From Candidatus Iainarchaeum sp. (GTDB lineage: Archaea; Iainarchaeota; Iainarchaeia; Iainarchaeales; 0-14-0-20-34-12), in contig JAUSKK010000009.1 of NCBI GenBank assembly GCA_030649345.1, forward strand, positions 1-15,894: 15,894 nt of DNA, written 5' to 3'. Position 1 is the first letter of the stretch; each line of letters starts with the position of its first letter. The notes below the pieces were generated by a model. The model was given only the letters and a program-made list of their open reading frames with translations. It had not been told where the DNA came from and did not search any database. This document shows, piece by piece, positions 5,752-14,954 of this stretch. The translations under genes were made by a program, and so were the position numbers.

Positions 5752-5824
5752 GGGTGGGTAGTCCAATTTGGTAGGATGCAAGGCTGTTGACCTTGGGACA
5801 CTGGTTCGAGTCCAGTCCCACCCG
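5752..5824 (+). tRNA. tRNA-Asn (anticodon GTT), no intron, CCA not encoded
   Basis: Manual cloverleaf: acceptor GGGTGGG/CCCACCC, D arm GTCC-AATTTGGTA-GGAT, anticodon arm CAAGG-CTGTTGA-CCTTG (GTT at positions 34-36), T arm ACTGG-TTCGAGT-CCAGT, discriminator G. Confidence 0.92.
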
Positions 5825-5830
5825 CTATCC

Positions 5831-7032: not shown

Positions 7033-7425
7033 GTGGTGATTTTTTTGGCAGAAACAGAAACTCAAGTAAACACAGCAGAAATTCAGGAAGAAGAAGGAAT
7101 TGTAGATGAACGCGAATTGCCGTTTCCGCGTGCAACTATTGTGAATATGATGCGTCAATACATTGACAAAGGAAAACAAATTAAAGGACCAGTCAAAGAT
7201 GAAATGAATATTTGGTTAGGGAAATTGGTTGAAAAATTAGCCAAAAAAATGAATGCACATCCTTATACTTATGTAGATTTAGCCATGTTCAATGAAGCCA
7301 TTAAAACCTATGAACAATTAGAAGAAGTTGAAATGGAACGCGAACGAATTATTAAGTACATGGAAAAAATCAAAGCAGATTTAGACATGCTGGAAAGAGA
7401 AGTAGACAAAAAATTCAAAGTATAA
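7033..7425 (+). CDS. histone-fold protein with acidic N-terminal segment and C-terminal coiled-coil extension
   Basis: The core ELPFPRATIVNMMRQYIDKGKQIKGPVKDEMNIWLGKLVEKLAKKMNAHPYTYVDLAMFNEAIKTY aligns by eye to the helix-loop-helix-loop-helix of HMfB-type archaeal histones (ELPIAPIGRII...). A heptad-like tail follows (EQLEEVEMERERIIKYMEKIKADLDMLEREVDKK). There is no ATG before the fold, so the start is GTG 7033/7036 or TTG 7045. The latter sits 5 nt after AGGTGGTGA (7031-7039). Confidence 0.6.
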   Translation: MVIFLAETETQVNTAEIQEEEGIVDERELPFPRATIVNMMRQYIDKGKQIKGPVKDEMNIWLGKLVEKLAKKMNAHPYTYVDLAMFNEAIKTYEQLEEVEMERERIIKYMEKIKADLDMLEREVDKKFKV

Positions 7426-7468: not shown

Positions 7469-8539
7469 TTATTTTTTTCTTCGAATTCTGTAAGCAAATG
7501 TTTTAGGTGCATTGGCTAAAACTCTTAATGTTTCCATTAAGCCGCGTATGCTTAATTCTTTTTCTGTGTCTGCTAACACTTCTGTTGGATGTTGTTCTAA
7601 TTTTTTTATTTCCATTTCTAAAAATCCAATGGCCTTGTTTAAATGTGTTTGAATGACTCTGGGATTTCGCTGATTTTGTGCAGCTCGCATAGCTAACTCG
7701 ACACACATAGCTGCTGCAGTTGGATAATTTTTTCTTGTTCTAGCTTTTCCCAATTCTTTTACTAAAACATAGGTTGGTTCTTTGGGAACTGCAATTAATT
7801 TTAAAATATGCTGCATGGCTGAAGCAATTCTTCCTTGTTGAACTGCACTGTGTTCTCTTAGTGTACGCAAAACTTTTACTCCACCTCTAGTTTTTAACAT
7901 TTTTTGCGCAATTTCTTTTCGTCTTTCTTTTCCTAATTTTTTTCGTCTTTTTTTTGCAATACTGGCTCTTTTTTTTGCACCCAATTTTGCTTGTCGGTCT
8001 TTGGCTAATTTTTGCATTAATTCTCTGTTTCCTTTTTCTTTAATCCATGTACTAAATCGTGCACTGGCGGGTTTCATATGCTTTATTCGTTCTGCCACTG
8101 CAACTTTTGACCAGTGTGTCCGTTGTGCTTGCCGCAAAGTTTCCCGGTCTCTTGTCATGCTGGCTCTGCGTTCTTCTGGAGTTGTTTGAGCCATCCAAGT
8201 TTGTTTAGCTCTTCTAGCACTTTCTCTTCTTTTTTCTACAGGAATGTGTTCAACGCTTTCTTTTCTCATTCTGGTTCTTTCTTCTGAAGAAAATCTACTC
8301 CAATAAGCTGTTTTTACTTTTTGTCTACGTTCATAGTCTGCCAGTTGTTTTCGTACTTGTTCTTCTGTTTCCATTCCTGCAAATCGATCAAATAACTTTC
8401 GAATCATGTGCGGCGGTGTTTGCGGCTCAACCTTTCTAGCTTTTTGCACTGCATATGTTTTTGAAACTCCTGTGTGTGCATCAAATGCTAAATTATGAAC
8501 TGCTCGCAAAGGCAAAGGCTTGTAGGGTTTTTTAGGCAT
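7469..8539 (-). CDS. very basic Arg/Lys-rich protein with internal W-x(5-7)-E-E-R repeats, unknown function (nucleic-acid binding suspected)
   Basis: 356-aa ORF. Four repeat units contain W80, W115, W143 and W165 (AYWSRFSSEERTRMRK / QTWMAQTTPEERRASMTR / THWSKVAVAERIKHMK / STWIKEKGNRELMQK). A poly-basic stretch follows (AKKRASIAKKRRKKLGKERRK), then a helical C-terminal domain. GAGG lies about 10 nt upstream of the ATG. The gene starts 28 nt downstream of the kinase gene on the same strand. Confidence 0.7.
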   Translation of the reverse strand: MPKKPYKPLPLRAVHNLAFDAHTGVSKTYAVQKARKVEPQTPPHMIRKLFDRFAGMETEEQVRKQLADYERRQKVKTAYWSRFSSEERTRMRKESVEHIPVEKRRESARRAKQTWMAQTTPEERRASMTRDRETLRQAQRTHWSKVAVAERIKHMKPASARFSTWIKEKGNRELMQKLAKDRQAKLGAKKRASIAKKRRKKLGKERRKEIAQKMLKTRGGVKVLRTLREHSAVQQGRIASAMQHILKLIAVPKEPTYVLVKELGKARTRKNYPTAAAMCVELAMRAAQNQRNPRVIQTHLNKAIGFLEMEIKKLEQHPTEVLADTEKELSIRGLMETLRVLANAPKTFAYRIRRKK

Positions 8540-10964: not shown

Positions 10965-11037
10965 CAACCGGGGTGCCGGTTGGTAGCACGTGGTACTTTC
11001 GCTAACGCTACAGTACCACTGTCTTTTCTTTTTTTTC
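10965..11037 (+). repeat. double-hairpin element, copy 2, directly after the thermosome stop, followed by a T-rich tract
   Basis: Hairpin 1 is CAACCGG(10965-10971)/CCGGTTG(10976-10982) with loop GGTG. The linker GTAGCAC contains CACGTG. Hairpin 2 is GTGGTACT(10990-10997)/AGTACCAC(11012-11019) with loop TTCGCTAACGCTAC. A T-rich tract follows (tgtcttttcttttttttc). It starts 1 nt after TAA 10962-10964. Confidence 0.6.
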
Positions 11038-11087
11038 TCTTTTCTTTTTTCCGATTTATTTTTATTTAACTTATTCTATTTTTTTAT

Positions 11088-11594
11088 ATGCAGGCACACA
11101 GAAAAATTTCTCGTACACCTAGATTGAATATTGGCCAGTATTGGAAAAATTACAAGCGCGCTGCTCGTGATCCTCGCATTTCAACTGTTCAAGCTCAGCG
11201 CGGATTGTTTGCGCGTGTCTTTAAACCACGGGTTTCTCCAAGCACTCGATTTATTTTAACCCTTATTGAAAACGAGCTTGCGCAAGGAATGACTTCAGAA
11301 TCTTTTCAGCGAGCGCATGTACATGCTTTGTCTGAATTGGAACTAGTTGGTGTTCCAAAACAAAATTGTCTTCCTGAACTAAAACAAAGGTATGATCAAT
11401 TATACAACGAACTTCAATCTCTGGCAGCTTTATCTATGGACGTTAAATTAAAGCAAGCAGACTTAATGCGCAAAGGAATAGTAACTCCAAGTGAACTTTT
11501 GTTGTACAATAAATTCAGTCATGCATTCCATAATGAAGCGCATCGAAGAATATTGTTTTTATCTGAACTCATTCACTCTGTTCGTTCCAGTTAA
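11088..11594 (+). CDS. Arg-rich helical protein, paralog 1 of a tandem triplet, unknown function
   Basis: 168 aa. It shares with the next two ORFs a basic N-terminus (TPRLNIGQ), a central block (FILTLIENELAQGMTSES) and a C-terminal block (LMRKGIVTPSELLLYNKFSHAFHNE). The box TTTTTATTTAAC (11059-11070) ends 17 nt before the ATG. Confidence 0.7.
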   Translation: MQAHRKISRTPRLNIGQYWKNYKRAARDPRISTVQAQRGLFARVFKPRVSPSTRFILTLIENELAQGMTSESFQRAHVHALSELELVGVPKQNCLPELKQRYDQLYNELQSLAALSMDVKLKQADLMRKGIVTPSELLLYNKFSHAFHNEAHRRILFLSELIHSVRSS

Positions 11595-11643
11595 CTGAAA
11601 AGATACTGTACTGTTTTTATTTTCTTTAATTCTTTAATTTTAT

Positions 11644-12183
11644 ATGTTGTACAAACGTCCTCCGCTCAAAAGACCAAAATATAGGCCAAGATTAAGTATT
11701 CGTAAACCCATGCGGGAATTTACGCATTTGCTGAAAGGAACTCCTAGAGAACAACATGAAAGAGTGCGTACTCGTTTTTTTTCAGAATTTTTTAGATCCC
11801 AAACTTTTGCAGCTGGACGCTTATTATTTAATTTAATGGAGCAAGAAATTGCTAAAGGAATTTCTGAAACTTCTTCGGGGCAAATTCTTGGGCGTGCCAG
11901 AACTATCTTGAAAATTGCACGCACAAAATTAAAAGGAAAAAAAGTTTCCTCTCTTGCTGCTGAAGAAAGCTTGAAAGTAATGGTTCGAGAATTAGACCGT
12001 GATTTTGAACGATTAAGTAGATTCGGTACAAGCATGCGGTTTCGTGAAAGTGACATGTTAACTCAAGGAGTTATTGGAGTTAATGAAATGACTCCCTACA
12101 ATGAATTTATTCATGCATTCAAAGGAGAACTGGGCCTTCGAAGAACTTTGCTGGTGATTCTTAAACGAGAATTAGCTAAATGA
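11644..12183 (+). CDS. Arg-rich helical protein, paralog 2 of a tandem triplet, unknown function
   Basis: 179 aa with RPRLSIRK, LLFNLMEQEIAKGISETS and MLTQGVIGVNEMTPYNEFIHAFKGE blocks collinear with paralogs 1 and 3. The box TTTTTATTTTCT (11614-11625) ends 18 nt before the ATG. The antisense 138-aa ORF 11640..12056 is rejected because the + frame has paralog support. Confidence 0.7.
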   Translation: MLYKRPPLKRPKYRPRLSIRKPMREFTHLLKGTPREQHERVRTRFFSEFFRSQTFAAGRLLFNLMEQEIAKGISETSSGQILGRARTILKIARTKLKGKKVSSLAAEESLKVMVRELDRDFERLSRFGTSMRFRESDMLTQGVIGVNEMTPYNEFIHAFKGELGLRRTLLVILKRELAK

Positions 12184-12225
12184 TATTTTGCATACTTTTT
12201 TATTTTCTAAAATTACTATATCTCT

Positions 12226-12747
12226 ATGAAAAAACCAATTCCATTCAAACCAGTCCGAAAAGTTGGCTTGAATGTTGAACGAACTTGGCAAAAATATTCT
12301 GCCATGCGACGAGTTTATGGTGAAAATACTCGAACATTTCGTCCGCATAGATTGGCTTTGTTTAATAGCTTAGTTCGAAAACAAATTCCTTTAGATCTCA
12401 AAATTTTATTTGACGCAGTCAGTATTGAATTTGAAAAGTCACCGCGTTTAGCTAATCCCAGAGAAGCAGTCAACAGAGTTCAACGTTTTCTGCGAAGCCA
12501 TGGTGCATCGCCTGAAGAAACACCAGTCCGTTTGCGTTCTATGATTAAAGACATGCAAGGACTTTTAGATCGCTTAACTGCATTCGAGACACAGGCAAGA
12601 GTTCAACAAAAACGTTTGATGGCCAAAGGGCGAATTCAATTCACTGATTTTAAAGCCTATTCTGCGTTTGTTGCTGAATTAAAAGACCAAGTAGAAACCC
12701 GAAAACGGTTTATGGACTTATTGGCTCGAGAGTTAGGAACTGATTAG
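12226..12747 (+). CDS. Arg-rich helical protein, paralog 3 of a tandem triplet, unknown function
   Basis: 173 aa with KPVRKVGLNV, ILFDAVSIEFEKSPRLAN and LMAKGRIQFTDFKAYSAFVAELKDQ blocks collinear with paralogs 1 and 2. The box TTTTTATTTTCT (12197-12208) ends 17 nt before the ATG. Confidence 0.7.
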   Translation: MKKPIPFKPVRKVGLNVERTWQKYSAMRRVYGENTRTFRPHRLALFNSLVRKQIPLDLKILFDAVSIEFEKSPRLANPREAVNRVQRFLRSHGASPEETPVRLRSMIKDMQGLLDRLTAFETQARVQQKRLMAKGRIQFTDFKAYSAFVAELKDQVETRKRFMDLLARELGTD

Positions 12748-12761
12748 GCTGCGAGAAAATT

Positions 12762-13352
12762 ATGGCTGCAAAAAAAGTTGAATTGATTTTAGGTTTCACT
12801 GGTTTAACGCGCAGCGGAAAAGATACTGCTGCAGATTTTGTTGCTCAAAAATTTGGCTTTGCTAAAATTGACAACAACAAAGACATTCTTTGGCCTGAAT
12901 TACTGAAACGCAAACGAAAAATCACAAAAATGAATTCAGTAAAATTAGGCGATGAACTTCGAGCCCAATATGGAATGGATATTATTGCCCAAAAAACTGT
13001 GAAACTTATTCAAAAACGGAAATGGCCTAAAGTAATCATTTCAGGCATTCGTTCCAGTGAAGACATTCCTTTATTCAAGAAACTAGCCAAGCGTTTTTAC
13101 CTGATTCGAATCCATGCTTCTCTGAAAATTAGAGTAAAGCGAATGAAACAAGTGCGAATTAAAGGAGAAACTTTGAGTTCAAGAAAAGAATTACTGCAAA
13201 AAGACCAAATTGACCTGCAAAAAAAAGGCTTGCGTAAAACCCTTGCTTTAGCAGACTATTCGATTCAAAATACCGGCTCTTTAGCTGACTTAAAACAAAA
13301 TTTGGTCCAATTGGTTCAAAAACTGGAAACAAATACCTTTAAAAAGAAATAA
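12762..13352 (+). CDS. P-loop nucleotide kinase-like protein (dephospho-CoA kinase / UPF0200-like)
   Basis: N-terminal Walker A-like GFTGLTRSGKDT, as in CoaE-type GxTGxxxSGK(S/T). VIISGIRSSEDIPLF resembles the (I/V)DGIRSxEE motif of archaeal UPF0200 kinases. It starts only 14 nt after paralog 3. Confidence 0.6.
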   Translation: MAAKKVELILGFTGLTRSGKDTAADFVAQKFGFAKIDNNKDILWPELLKRKRKITKMNSVKLGDELRAQYGMDIIAQKTVKLIQKRKWPKVIISGIRSSEDIPLFKKLAKRFYLIRIHASLKIRVKRMKQVRIKGETLSSRKELLQKDQIDLQKKGLRKTLALADYSIQNTGSLADLKQNLVQLVQKLETNTFKKK

Positions 13353-14754: not shown

Positions 14755-14820
14755 GCCTAAGCTTTGATTATTGTGCATAGCATATTCATTTTAATTCTTT
14801 GAATTACTTGTTTTATAGTT

Positions 14821-14894
14821 GGGCCTGTAGCTCAGCCTGGCAGAGCATTGGTCTTATACGCCAGTGGTCAACGGTTCAAATCCGTTCAGGCCCA
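14821..14894 (+). tRNA. tRNA-Ile (anticodon TAT), no intron, CCA not encoded
   Basis: Manual cloverleaf: acceptor GGGCCTG/CAGGCCC, D arm GCTC-AGCCTGGCA-GAGC, anticodon arm TTGGT-CTTATAC-GCCAG (terminal G-U pairs, TAT at positions 34-36), variable TGGTC, T arm AACGG-TTCAAAT-CCGTT, discriminator A. Confidence 0.88.
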
Positions 14895-14954
14895 AACTGC
14901 AACTTTCTTGTAATTCAAAAAGTTTTATTAAGTTAGTTAACTGCATGTGAAACA

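Follow-up and report, generated by a model that had tools for sequence, protein, structure and literature searches.

Small, basic, helical nucleic-acid-binding proteins that carry a charged arm include PriC, Dps, whose N-terminal tail is basic, and capsid and nucleoid proteins with Arg-rich arms. Here we describe three tandem genes, P1, P2 and P3, on contig JAUSKK010000009.1, which was analyzed in its entirety (15,894 bp, 35% G+C) and is referred to below as the window. The contig stems from a "tiny-celled", Iainarchaeota-like DPANN archaeon, and its closest thermosome homologs, at 65-75% identity, are those of Candidatus Diapherotrites (Iainarchaeota). The predicted products of P1-P3 resemble the class of armed basic proteins in their length of about 170 amino acids (aa), their isoelectric point (pI) of 10.3-11.1, their all-alpha structure, and the concentration of positive charge in a disordered Pro/Arg/Lys N-terminal arm and the adjacent helices. 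They differ from it in having neither a sequence nor a fold match, and the resemblance is one of kind and not of membership.

Leaderless archaeal promoters have a TATA box centred about 26 nucleotides (nt) upstream of a transcription start site that coincides with the start codon. Upstream of P1-P3, T/A-rich boxes are found at -30 to -19, Shine-Dalgarno motifs are lacking, and the same geometry recurs in the clade. In contrast to the known promoters, the P box is unusually T-rich (TTTTTATTT rather than TTTAWATA), and it also forms an oligo-T tract immediately past the stop codon of the preceding gene.

Many archaea, above all those of the DPANN group, encode hypothetical proteins that are specific to their lineage (PMC6393860, PMC9258230). 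P1-P3 share with archaeal "genomic dark matter" families their small size, the lack of annotation, a narrow lineage, a location in a variable slot between conserved genes, and paralog expansion. Most such families, however, occur in several genomes, whereas the P family was found nowhere outside one contig, and yet has a confident predicted fold.

Our preferred explanation, to which we assign as a whole a probability of about 45%, is as follows. An ORFan gene was inserted into the space that separates the thermosome gene from a conserved P-loop kinase gene in an Iainarchaeota/Diapherotrites-like archaeon. Tandem triplication followed, every copy taking its promoter along. Each copy would be transcribed as a leaderless mRNA from its own box, with the third transcript continuing into the kinase gene, and the array would now occupy the position of the ancestral kinase promoter. 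The products would be small non-enzymatic helical proteins. Their Pro/Arg/Lys-rich N-terminal arm and first two helices may bind a polyanion, most likely RNA or DNA, and a compact helical body with a long C-terminal helical hairpin may serve folding and the homo- or hetero-oligomerization of the paralogs. The gene, paralogy and insertion parts of this picture seem to us close to certain. The binding function taken by itself, inferred from charge and composition, is tentative, an even bet at best.

Paralogy and age of P1-P3

The original prediction had described three plus-strand genes of 168, 179 and 173 aa as collinear paralogs of low identity. The genes were confirmed in the list of open reading frames (ORFs). 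BLASTP aligned P1 and P2 over their full length (E = 3e-12, 24% identity) and also detected the pairs P1-P3 (E = 0.016, collinear) and P2-P3 (E = 0.041). Because the proteins are compositionally biased, Smith-Waterman alignments were compared with 1000 composition-preserving shuffles. The resulting z-scores were 18.0 for P1-P2, 11.9 for P2-P3, and 6.1 for P1-P3, and the real score was equaled in 0/1000 shuffles. A lack of significant similarity among the three, named beforehand as the outcome that would speak against paralogy, was thus not what we found. Control alignments to unrelated basic neighbors (the products of kin and o130) gave z-scores of -0.9 to 0.0 (local) and -1.0 to 1.3 (semi-global). 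The AlphaFold2 models of P1 (helices 15-26/33-44/51-66/70-86/91-121(+123-128)/134-167) and P3 (helices 17-31/35-51/56-71/78-91/98-133/139-169) match in helix order. Similarity beyond composition, full-length collinearity and the same predicted helix order, which together were taken as the test of common ancestry, were all present, and they identify P1, P2 and P3 as real collinear tandem paralogs.

The C-terminal block quoted earlier as common to all three proteins was found verbatim in each. The N-terminal PRL(N/S)I and central ExE(L/I)AxG motifs, which had likewise been described as shared, are clear in P1 and P2 and partial in P3, where the corresponding stretches read GLNV and SIEFEKS.

Pairwise amino acid identity among P1-P3 is 17-22%, and their coding DNA is 38-43% identical. 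At third codon positions, the identity of 0.38-0.43 compares with 0.31 expected at random from composition. The earlier equation of low identity with an old duplication agrees with these values, which point to an old triplication with near-saturated synonymous sites.

We also note a 24-nt patch in P1 and P2 (Table 1) that is 88% identical against a nucleotide background of 42% and encodes YN(K/E)F(S/I)HAF. The patch points to very strong constraint or, alternatively, to gene conversion over a small tract.

Coding status of the ORFs

The P1, P2 and P3 frames are open from 11070, 11638 and 12211, respectively. The start positions are considered firm because every ATG is the earliest possible start past the in-frame stop. 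From base composition, the chance of a stop-free run of about 170 codons at 35% G+C was estimated as roughly 3e-6 per ORF. The G+C content decreases from the first to the third codon position (GC1>GC2>GC3), with values of 0.52/0.38/0.28 in P1 and 0.54/0.36/0.28 in the thermosome gene. In synonymous codon usage the P genes do not differ from the remainder of the contig (summed chi-square p = 0.10), and their residence has been long enough for this usage to be native. Further P copies or pseudogenes were not found in the window.

We considered that the ORFs might not be genes at all, and might instead represent chance open frames, pseudogenized or non-coding DNA. The lack of homologs anywhere and the 138-aa antisense ORF that overlaps P2 would fit this explanation. 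Against it, DNA of 35% G+C is very unlikely to contain three successive frames that run for about 170 codons without a stop, the three proteins show significant mutual similarity, the codon position gradient is of the coding type and codon usage is native, and the structure predictions for P1 and P3 are confident and concordant. The antisense ORF has no counterpart in P1 or P3, and we judge it to be a shadow ORF since the paralogs exist in the + frame only. A non-coding nature is thus very unlikely, and we regard P1-P3 as real protein-coding genes.

Composition and predicted structure

Arg is more frequent in P1-P3 (Table 1) than in the products of the neighboring genes, where it accounts for 0-6.6% of residues in all except o356. 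The ratio R/(R+K) is 0.61-0.62 in P1-P3 and 0.00-0.36 in the other genes, again except o356 (0.50). The earlier description of an Arg-rich triplet among mostly Lys-rich neighbors agrees with these values. The Arg excess resides at codon positions 1 and 2, and GC3 is native. In an A+T-rich genome, and with GC3 native, a preference for Arg over Lys points to selection for Arg itself, and the excess looks like the result of such selection, not of foreign composition.

The net charges of P1, P2 and P3 are +12, +20 and +17, of which alignment columns 1-60 hold +12, +12 and +11, respectively. Eight columns are basic in all three proteins, compared to 1.2 expected (0/2000 shuffles). Nearly all conserved positive charge is located in the N-terminal third.

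AlphaFold2 predicted six or seven helices for P1 (predicted local distance difference test, pLDDT, 84.6; predicted template modeling score, pTM, 0.76) and six helices for P3 (pLDDT 83.6, pTM 0.75). In the models, the basic N-terminal arm is disordered and precedes four helices of 12-17 residues, after which two helices of 30-36 residues form a hairpin. Together with pI and net charge, they support the all-helical and basic character that had been anticipated. The residues invariant across the paralogs are L, F, G and Y together with one E and one R. Most of them are hydrophobic or structural and no set resembles catalytic residues, which is the reason why we expect the proteins to be non-enzymatic.

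Searches for relatives

Profile and structure searches had been proposed as a check on the original prediction, in which no domain had been recognized and for which a confident match to a well-characterized family would have been an adverse outcome. A profile of the three paralogs retrieved self matches only, both in a word-index search of 5.8 billion proteins and in a full, filter-free HMMER search of 1.84 billion representatives of about 15 billion proteins. Family membership was defined by the curated cut-off or by E <= 1e-3 for at least one paralog, and no match of this quality was found. The best Pfam matches reached 13.0-15.2 bits against cut-offs of 23.3-27 and concerned a different family per paralog, with none for P2. 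NCBIfam, PHROGs and PADLOC yielded nothing with E < 0.01 for P1-P3, and the three-sequence profile found nothing above noise among PDB sequences. P relatives were absent from GTDB genomes and from IMG/VR and JGI metagenome contigs (pattern and tblastn searches), as well as from INPHARED phages and PLSDB plasmids (tblastn).

Foldseek found no match with E < 0.2 for the P1 model in PDB and BFVD or for the P3 model in PDB. The best E value for P3 was 0.9 among the 50 matches listed. Ferritin-like and other helical bundles reached template modeling (TM) scores of at most 0.43 with E >= 0.2, and the ESCRT-III/PspA, ferritin/Dps, Cas11 and rod-shaped-virus capsid folds were absent among the Foldseek matches listed. 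No weak match recurred between paralogs. An archaeal histone or histone fold (PF00808) was also considered and gave no match in P1-P3. Alignments of P1 and P3 with o130, the histone-fold-like protein encoded nearby, gave local z-scores of -0.7 and -0.2 and semi-global z-scores of 1.3 and 0.2, respectively.

Two weak leads could be taken to indicate a known family whose divergence is too great for the searches to bridge. Examples would be a factor associated with the ribosome or with RNA processing, a DNA-transaction protein of the kleisin/MukF or PriC type, or a small subunit resembling Cas11. The top Foldseek match of P1 was the N-terminal domain of MukF, the kleisin of MukBEF (PDB 1t98, 9gm7), which is also helical and of similar length. 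The match had E = 0.22-0.47, a probability of 0.69-0.89 and a TM score of 0.38-0.40, and thus fell short of TM > 0.5 and E < 1e-3, the values that together with occurrence in the paralogs and MukB/MukE partners would have made us accept it. The root-mean-square deviation was about 10.5 Å, MukB/MukE genes are missing, and the host of P1 is an archaeon. MukF was absent among the 50 matches listed for P3. The other lead was the 15.2-bit match of P3 to PriC (PF07445; E = 0.021), which covers 39 residues of the 174-position model, lies below the cut-off of 23.3, and has no equivalent in P1 or P2. A diverged family would also suit the neighborhood, in which many genes serve translation and ribosome biogenesis (RIO kinase, GatCAB, Trm112, tRNAs). 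It is nevertheless improbable, since neither lead recurs in another paralog, the three-sequence profile finds nothing in PDB sequences or in the 1.84 billion representatives, the window contains neither MukB/E nor cas partner genes, and relatives lack P1-P3, which argues against a core housekeeping role.

Hence the impression of a protein without recognizable domain was borne out in Pfam, NCBIfam, PDB, PHROGs and PADLOC. A lineage-specific DPANN family had been suggested, and the family indeed appears to be lineage-specific, in a narrower sense than had been guessed: by all searches it is an ORFan family confined to a single 15.9-kb contig. It lies outside every sequence family and solved fold that we tested, newness here meaning an absence of relatives and not a demonstrated mechanism.

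Insertion between the thermosome and kinase genes

In order to place the triplet in context, we compared the loci of seven related thermosomes. Window proteins were mapped by tblastn onto the first three loci, and the other four were read from called genes and Pfam. The conserved block consists of o130, a RIO-type kinase gene (-), in some cases Maf, the thermosome gene (+), kin (+) and an MscS-like gene (+). In L001/2, L005, L007 and L008/9, the kinase gene directly follows the 3' end of the thermosome gene with a gap of 30-85 nt, and in L003/4 three unrelated genes separate the two. P-like ORFs were not detected in L001-L005 by hmmsearch --max (best E = 0.38). L007 and L008/9 have no room for such an ORF, the kinase gene adjoining the thermosome gene. 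The triplet is read as an insertion because in relatives the kinase follows the thermosome directly, and it is a lineage-specific insertion in a variable slot rather than a conserved companion of the thermosome. A check of conserved copy number and thermosome linkage had been suggested, and neither held: P genes are absent from the junction in four relative lineages, and in L003/4 unrelated genes occupy the slot.

Alternatively, a mobile element or virus that has escaped sampling may have brought the triplet as cargo or left it as a remnant, or the genes may form a fast-evolving array related to conflict that landed in an insertion hot spot. Its function, for example as a nucleoprotein or an anti-host or anti-virus factor, would then be tied to the element and not to host housekeeping. 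Such an origin would agree with the variability of the slot, in which L003/4 has three other genes including one for a non-homologous 150-aa protein (14% Arg, pI 11.6), with the presence of o356 (net charge +52), another Arg-rich near-orphan that is inserted into this conserved block at a distance of 2.5 kb, and with the combination of ORFan status and tandem paralog expansion that is typical of conflict genes. On the other hand, no integrase, transposase or other element gene was found near the triplet, there are no convincing flanking direct or inverted repeats or att sites, and no tRNA gene adjoins the insertion junction. Codon usage and GC3 are native, and there were no matches in IMG/VR contigs, PHROGs, PADLOC, BFVD, INPHARED or PLSDB. 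Foreign origin by composition was rejected in view of the native codon usage, and an integrated mobile element or provirus was rejected for want of integrase, repeats, tRNA junction, deviant composition, and viral or plasmid homologs. We therefore consider the broader mobile or conflict-related origin unlikely, and retain insertion of an ORFan gene into a host locus as the preferred reading.

The Arg-rich 150-aa protein of L003 is encoded directly downstream of the thermosome gene, and an identical gene is present in L004. In full-length shuffle tests it showed no significant similarity to P1-P3 (z at most 2.7, for P3). More generally, the best N-terminal match between P1-P3 and other Arg-rich proteins had p = 0.013 before correction for multiple tests. 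Two lineages have thus independently put an Arg-rich orphan in the slot downstream of the thermosome.

Boxes, putative promoters and transcription units

The original prediction had placed a box 17-18 nt before every ATG, and exactly this was found (17, 18 and 17 nt). A 9-mer, TTTTTATTT, is identical (9/9) in all three boxes. It occurs 11 times in the window, compared to 4.0 expected. From box to ATG, P1 and P2 are 72% identical over 32 nt, and P2 and P3 are 89% identical over 18 nt (box 2/3 and flank), in both cases in register. Because the box is fully conserved and the spacers remain in register, in contrast to 38-43% identity of the coding DNA, the promoter appears to have been duplicated together with the gene and then conserved.

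No Shine-Dalgarno motif (GGAGG-like) is present in the last 20 nt before the ATGs of P1-P3. Such motifs precede the thermosome (GGAGG), RIO (AGGAG) and o356 (GAGGA) genes, gatA, and the MscS-like gene. Positions of TATA-like hexamers were counted in the window and five relative loci (L001, L003, L005, L007, L008) for genes with at least 60 nt of upstream spacer, the triplet being excluded. The hexamer starts at -30 to -26 in 12 of 49 clade genes, and every other 5-nt bin contained 0-6. Gene starts in the clade fall into two classes, one with a GGAGG-like motif 5-16 nt upstream, and one without it but with a TATA-like hexamer at -30 to -26. The latter class suggests leaderless mRNAs, and in silico this evidence would make leaderless T-rich TATA promoters a common gene-start architecture in Iainarchaeota.

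The P boxes span -29/-30 to -18/-19 and are not accompanied by Shine-Dalgarno motifs, as expected for leaderless promoters. We strongly infer that every P copy yields a leaderless mRNA driven by the T-rich TATA-like box in front of it. Two points count against this reading. In the clade sample, the link between absence of a Shine-Dalgarno motif and presence of a box does not exceed a trend (16/36 versus 6/25, p = 0.11). Moreover, the T5-T6 runs in the boxes could be archaeal terminators instead of, or besides, TATA boxes, and the T5 run of box 2 could also end the P1 transcript.

These T runs matter for the possibility that P1-P3 and the kinase gene form a single operon transcribed from the box before P1, the inner boxes being attenuating terminators or relics of duplication. 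This possibility concerns transcription architecture only and is not exclusive of other explanations. The four genes lie on the same strand with gaps of 49 nt (P1-P2), 42 nt (P2-P3) and 14 nt (P3-kinase, 12748-12761), T5-T6 runs are an archaeal termination signal, and equal spacing of the boxes could have been inherited in the duplications. Against a single operon, the box is 9/9 identical in three copies while surrounding and coding DNA decayed to about 40% identity. Moreover, P2 and P3 lack a Shine-Dalgarno motif, whereas the one clear internal cistron of the window, o356 after RIO, has GAGGA, and the position of the box coincides with the clade-wide TATA peak at -30 to -26. A single operon is accordingly a minority possibility, and we continue to favor one promoter per copy.

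The kinase gene itself differs between the window and its relatives. Its product best matches PRK08356 in NCBIfam (2.8e-16) and also resembles the anti-phage dCTP deaminase model over its kinase domain (1.3e-9). In relatives, a T-rich box is located about 17-20 nt before the kinase ATG, and the window kinase has no box. The window kinase gene has also lost its own upstream spacer, leaving 14 nt to the P3 stop. The relatives' boxes resemble the regions upstream of P1-P3, as illustrated by CTTTTTTATTTTTATTC (L008) and by ACTTATTCT, common to L005 and P1, but the sequences are of low complexity and homology with the P boxes is not proven. Because of the 14-nt gap and the missing box, which orthologs possess, P3 and the kinase gene are probably co-transcribed as the third transcription unit. 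The likeliest history would place the array between the ancestral kinase promoter and the kinase gene. Of the three separate leaderless units proposed originally, box geometry, the lack of Shine-Dalgarno motifs and the clade-wide peak favor the arrangement, with the amendment that the third unit probably runs on into the kinase gene.

Directly past the thermosome stop, the region 5' of P1 contains the hairpins AACCGGGGTGCCGGTT and GTGGTACT...AGTACCAC and, behind them, a pyrimidine/T tract that is about 35 nt long. Its predicted fold has -27.4 kcal/mol (z = -3.8 versus shuffles). The thermosome-kinase spacer of relatives has a comparable T tract without the hairpins. The region is likely the thermosome terminator and the upstream border of the insertion.

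Proposed function and significance

Several considerations weigh against assigning nucleic acid binding to P1-P3. No nucleic-acid-binding fold or motif is recognized in them, and Arg-rich basic proteins can also bind acidic proteins, membranes or polyphosphate. The AlphaFold2 models were built on a three-sequence alignment, and idealized helices can score well. Since the family is known from one contig only, purifying selection across species is not measurable. A more far-reaching version of our proposal, in which the triplet is a new fold and family of Arg-rich nucleic-acid-binding (chromatin or RNA) proteins that arose or diverged beyond recognition in one Iainarchaeota lineage and act as a three-paralog hetero-oligomer, is in our view rather doubtful.

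If the proteins are made and do bind nucleic acids, they would constitute a compact private family that was triplicated long ago, has promoters of its own and a predicted fold that is new, and entered a conserved block of housekeeping genes. This would bear on the question how genome-reduced symbiotic archaea of the DPANN group gain functions specific to a lineage, and on the share of "dark matter" that truly has no relatives. In the more far-reaching version, the family and the unrelated Arg-rich o356, inserted beside a coiled-coil histone gene, would be an example of how reduced DPANN genomes invent private nucleoid- or RNA-handling proteins. At present, P1-P3 are well-documented hypothetical proteins that open no long-standing question and would not greatly surprise a specialist. 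A triplicated and confidently folding family without a relative among about 15 billion proteins merits modest follow-up.

Neighboring genes and further observations

The coordinates of all features are collected in Table 1.

Table 1. Features of the P1-P3 locus and its surroundings. Positions refer to the window unless a related locus is named.
Feature	Position	Strand	Description
P1	11088-11594	+	168 aa, pI 10.3, 9.5% Arg; from ORF list, paralogy, composition
P2	11644-12183	+	179 aa, pI 11.1, 13.4% Arg; nearest to both other paralogs
P3	12226-12747	+	173 aa, pI 10.8, 12.7% Arg; most diverged paralog
Box 1, TTTTTATTTAAC	11059-11070	+	starts at -29, ends 17 nt before P1 ATG; putative TATA box
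Box 2, TTTTTATTTTCT	11614-11625	+	starts at -30, ends 18 nt before P2 ATG
Box 3, TTTTTATTTTCT	12197-12208	+	starts at -29, ends 17 nt before P3 ATG
24-nt patch in P1	11505-11528	+	compared with patch in P2
24-nt patch in P2	12097-12120	+	compared with patch in P1
P-loop kinase gene, kin	12762-13352	+	AAA_18/PRK08356-like; ancestral thermosome neighbor
Thermosome 3' region	10965-11050	+	two G+C-rich hairpins and long T-rich tract; RNA fold
Antisense ORF	11640-12056	-	138 aa, overlaps nearly all of P2
o356	7469-8539	-	356 aa, 12.4% Arg, 12.4% Lys, net charge +52, pI 11
o130	7033-7425	+	conserved in relatives' loci
o130 members in related loci	L001 4273-4623; L003 2199-2618; L005 4214-4687; L006 188-565; L007 5246-5671; L008 5212-5715		
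150-aa protein of L003	L003 7763-8215; identical L004 3409-3861	+	14% Arg, pI 11.6
tRNA-Asn(GUU)	5752-5825		
tRNA-Ile	14820-14895	+	UAU anticodon

The o356 gene is an insertion flanked by the histone-like o130 and the RIO kinase gene; at this place relatives have another gene or none. Because o356 starts 28 nt past the RIO stop and has a GAGGA motif, the two are probably co-transcribed. Among 5.8 billion proteins, o356 has one homolog only (P0125, 57% identity), encoded on a 2.3-kb ENA contig (ERZ27297570), on which gene order and sizes fit the same neighbors and which ends short of the thermosome junction. Scans of genomes and metagenomes found no match to o356. A relationship to P1-P3 was considered and rejected (hhalign probability 0.4%, full-length shuffle z <= 0.9).

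In the o130 family, 3 of 7 members match the histone fold PF00808 (best E = 2.3e-4), and the window member has a weak match to the histone-fold protein Dpb4 (E = 0.058). The called GTG start of the window gene is probably wrong, since homology begins near residue 24. The C-terminal helix is long in all members, in agreement with the coiled-coil (DNA-bridging) histones that have been reported from Iainarchaeota (PMC11390915).

An Rfam scan of the window detected two tRNAs only, tRNA-Asn(GUU) and tRNA-Ile(UAU). The latter is uncommon in archaea, where AUA is usually decoded by a modified CAU tRNA.

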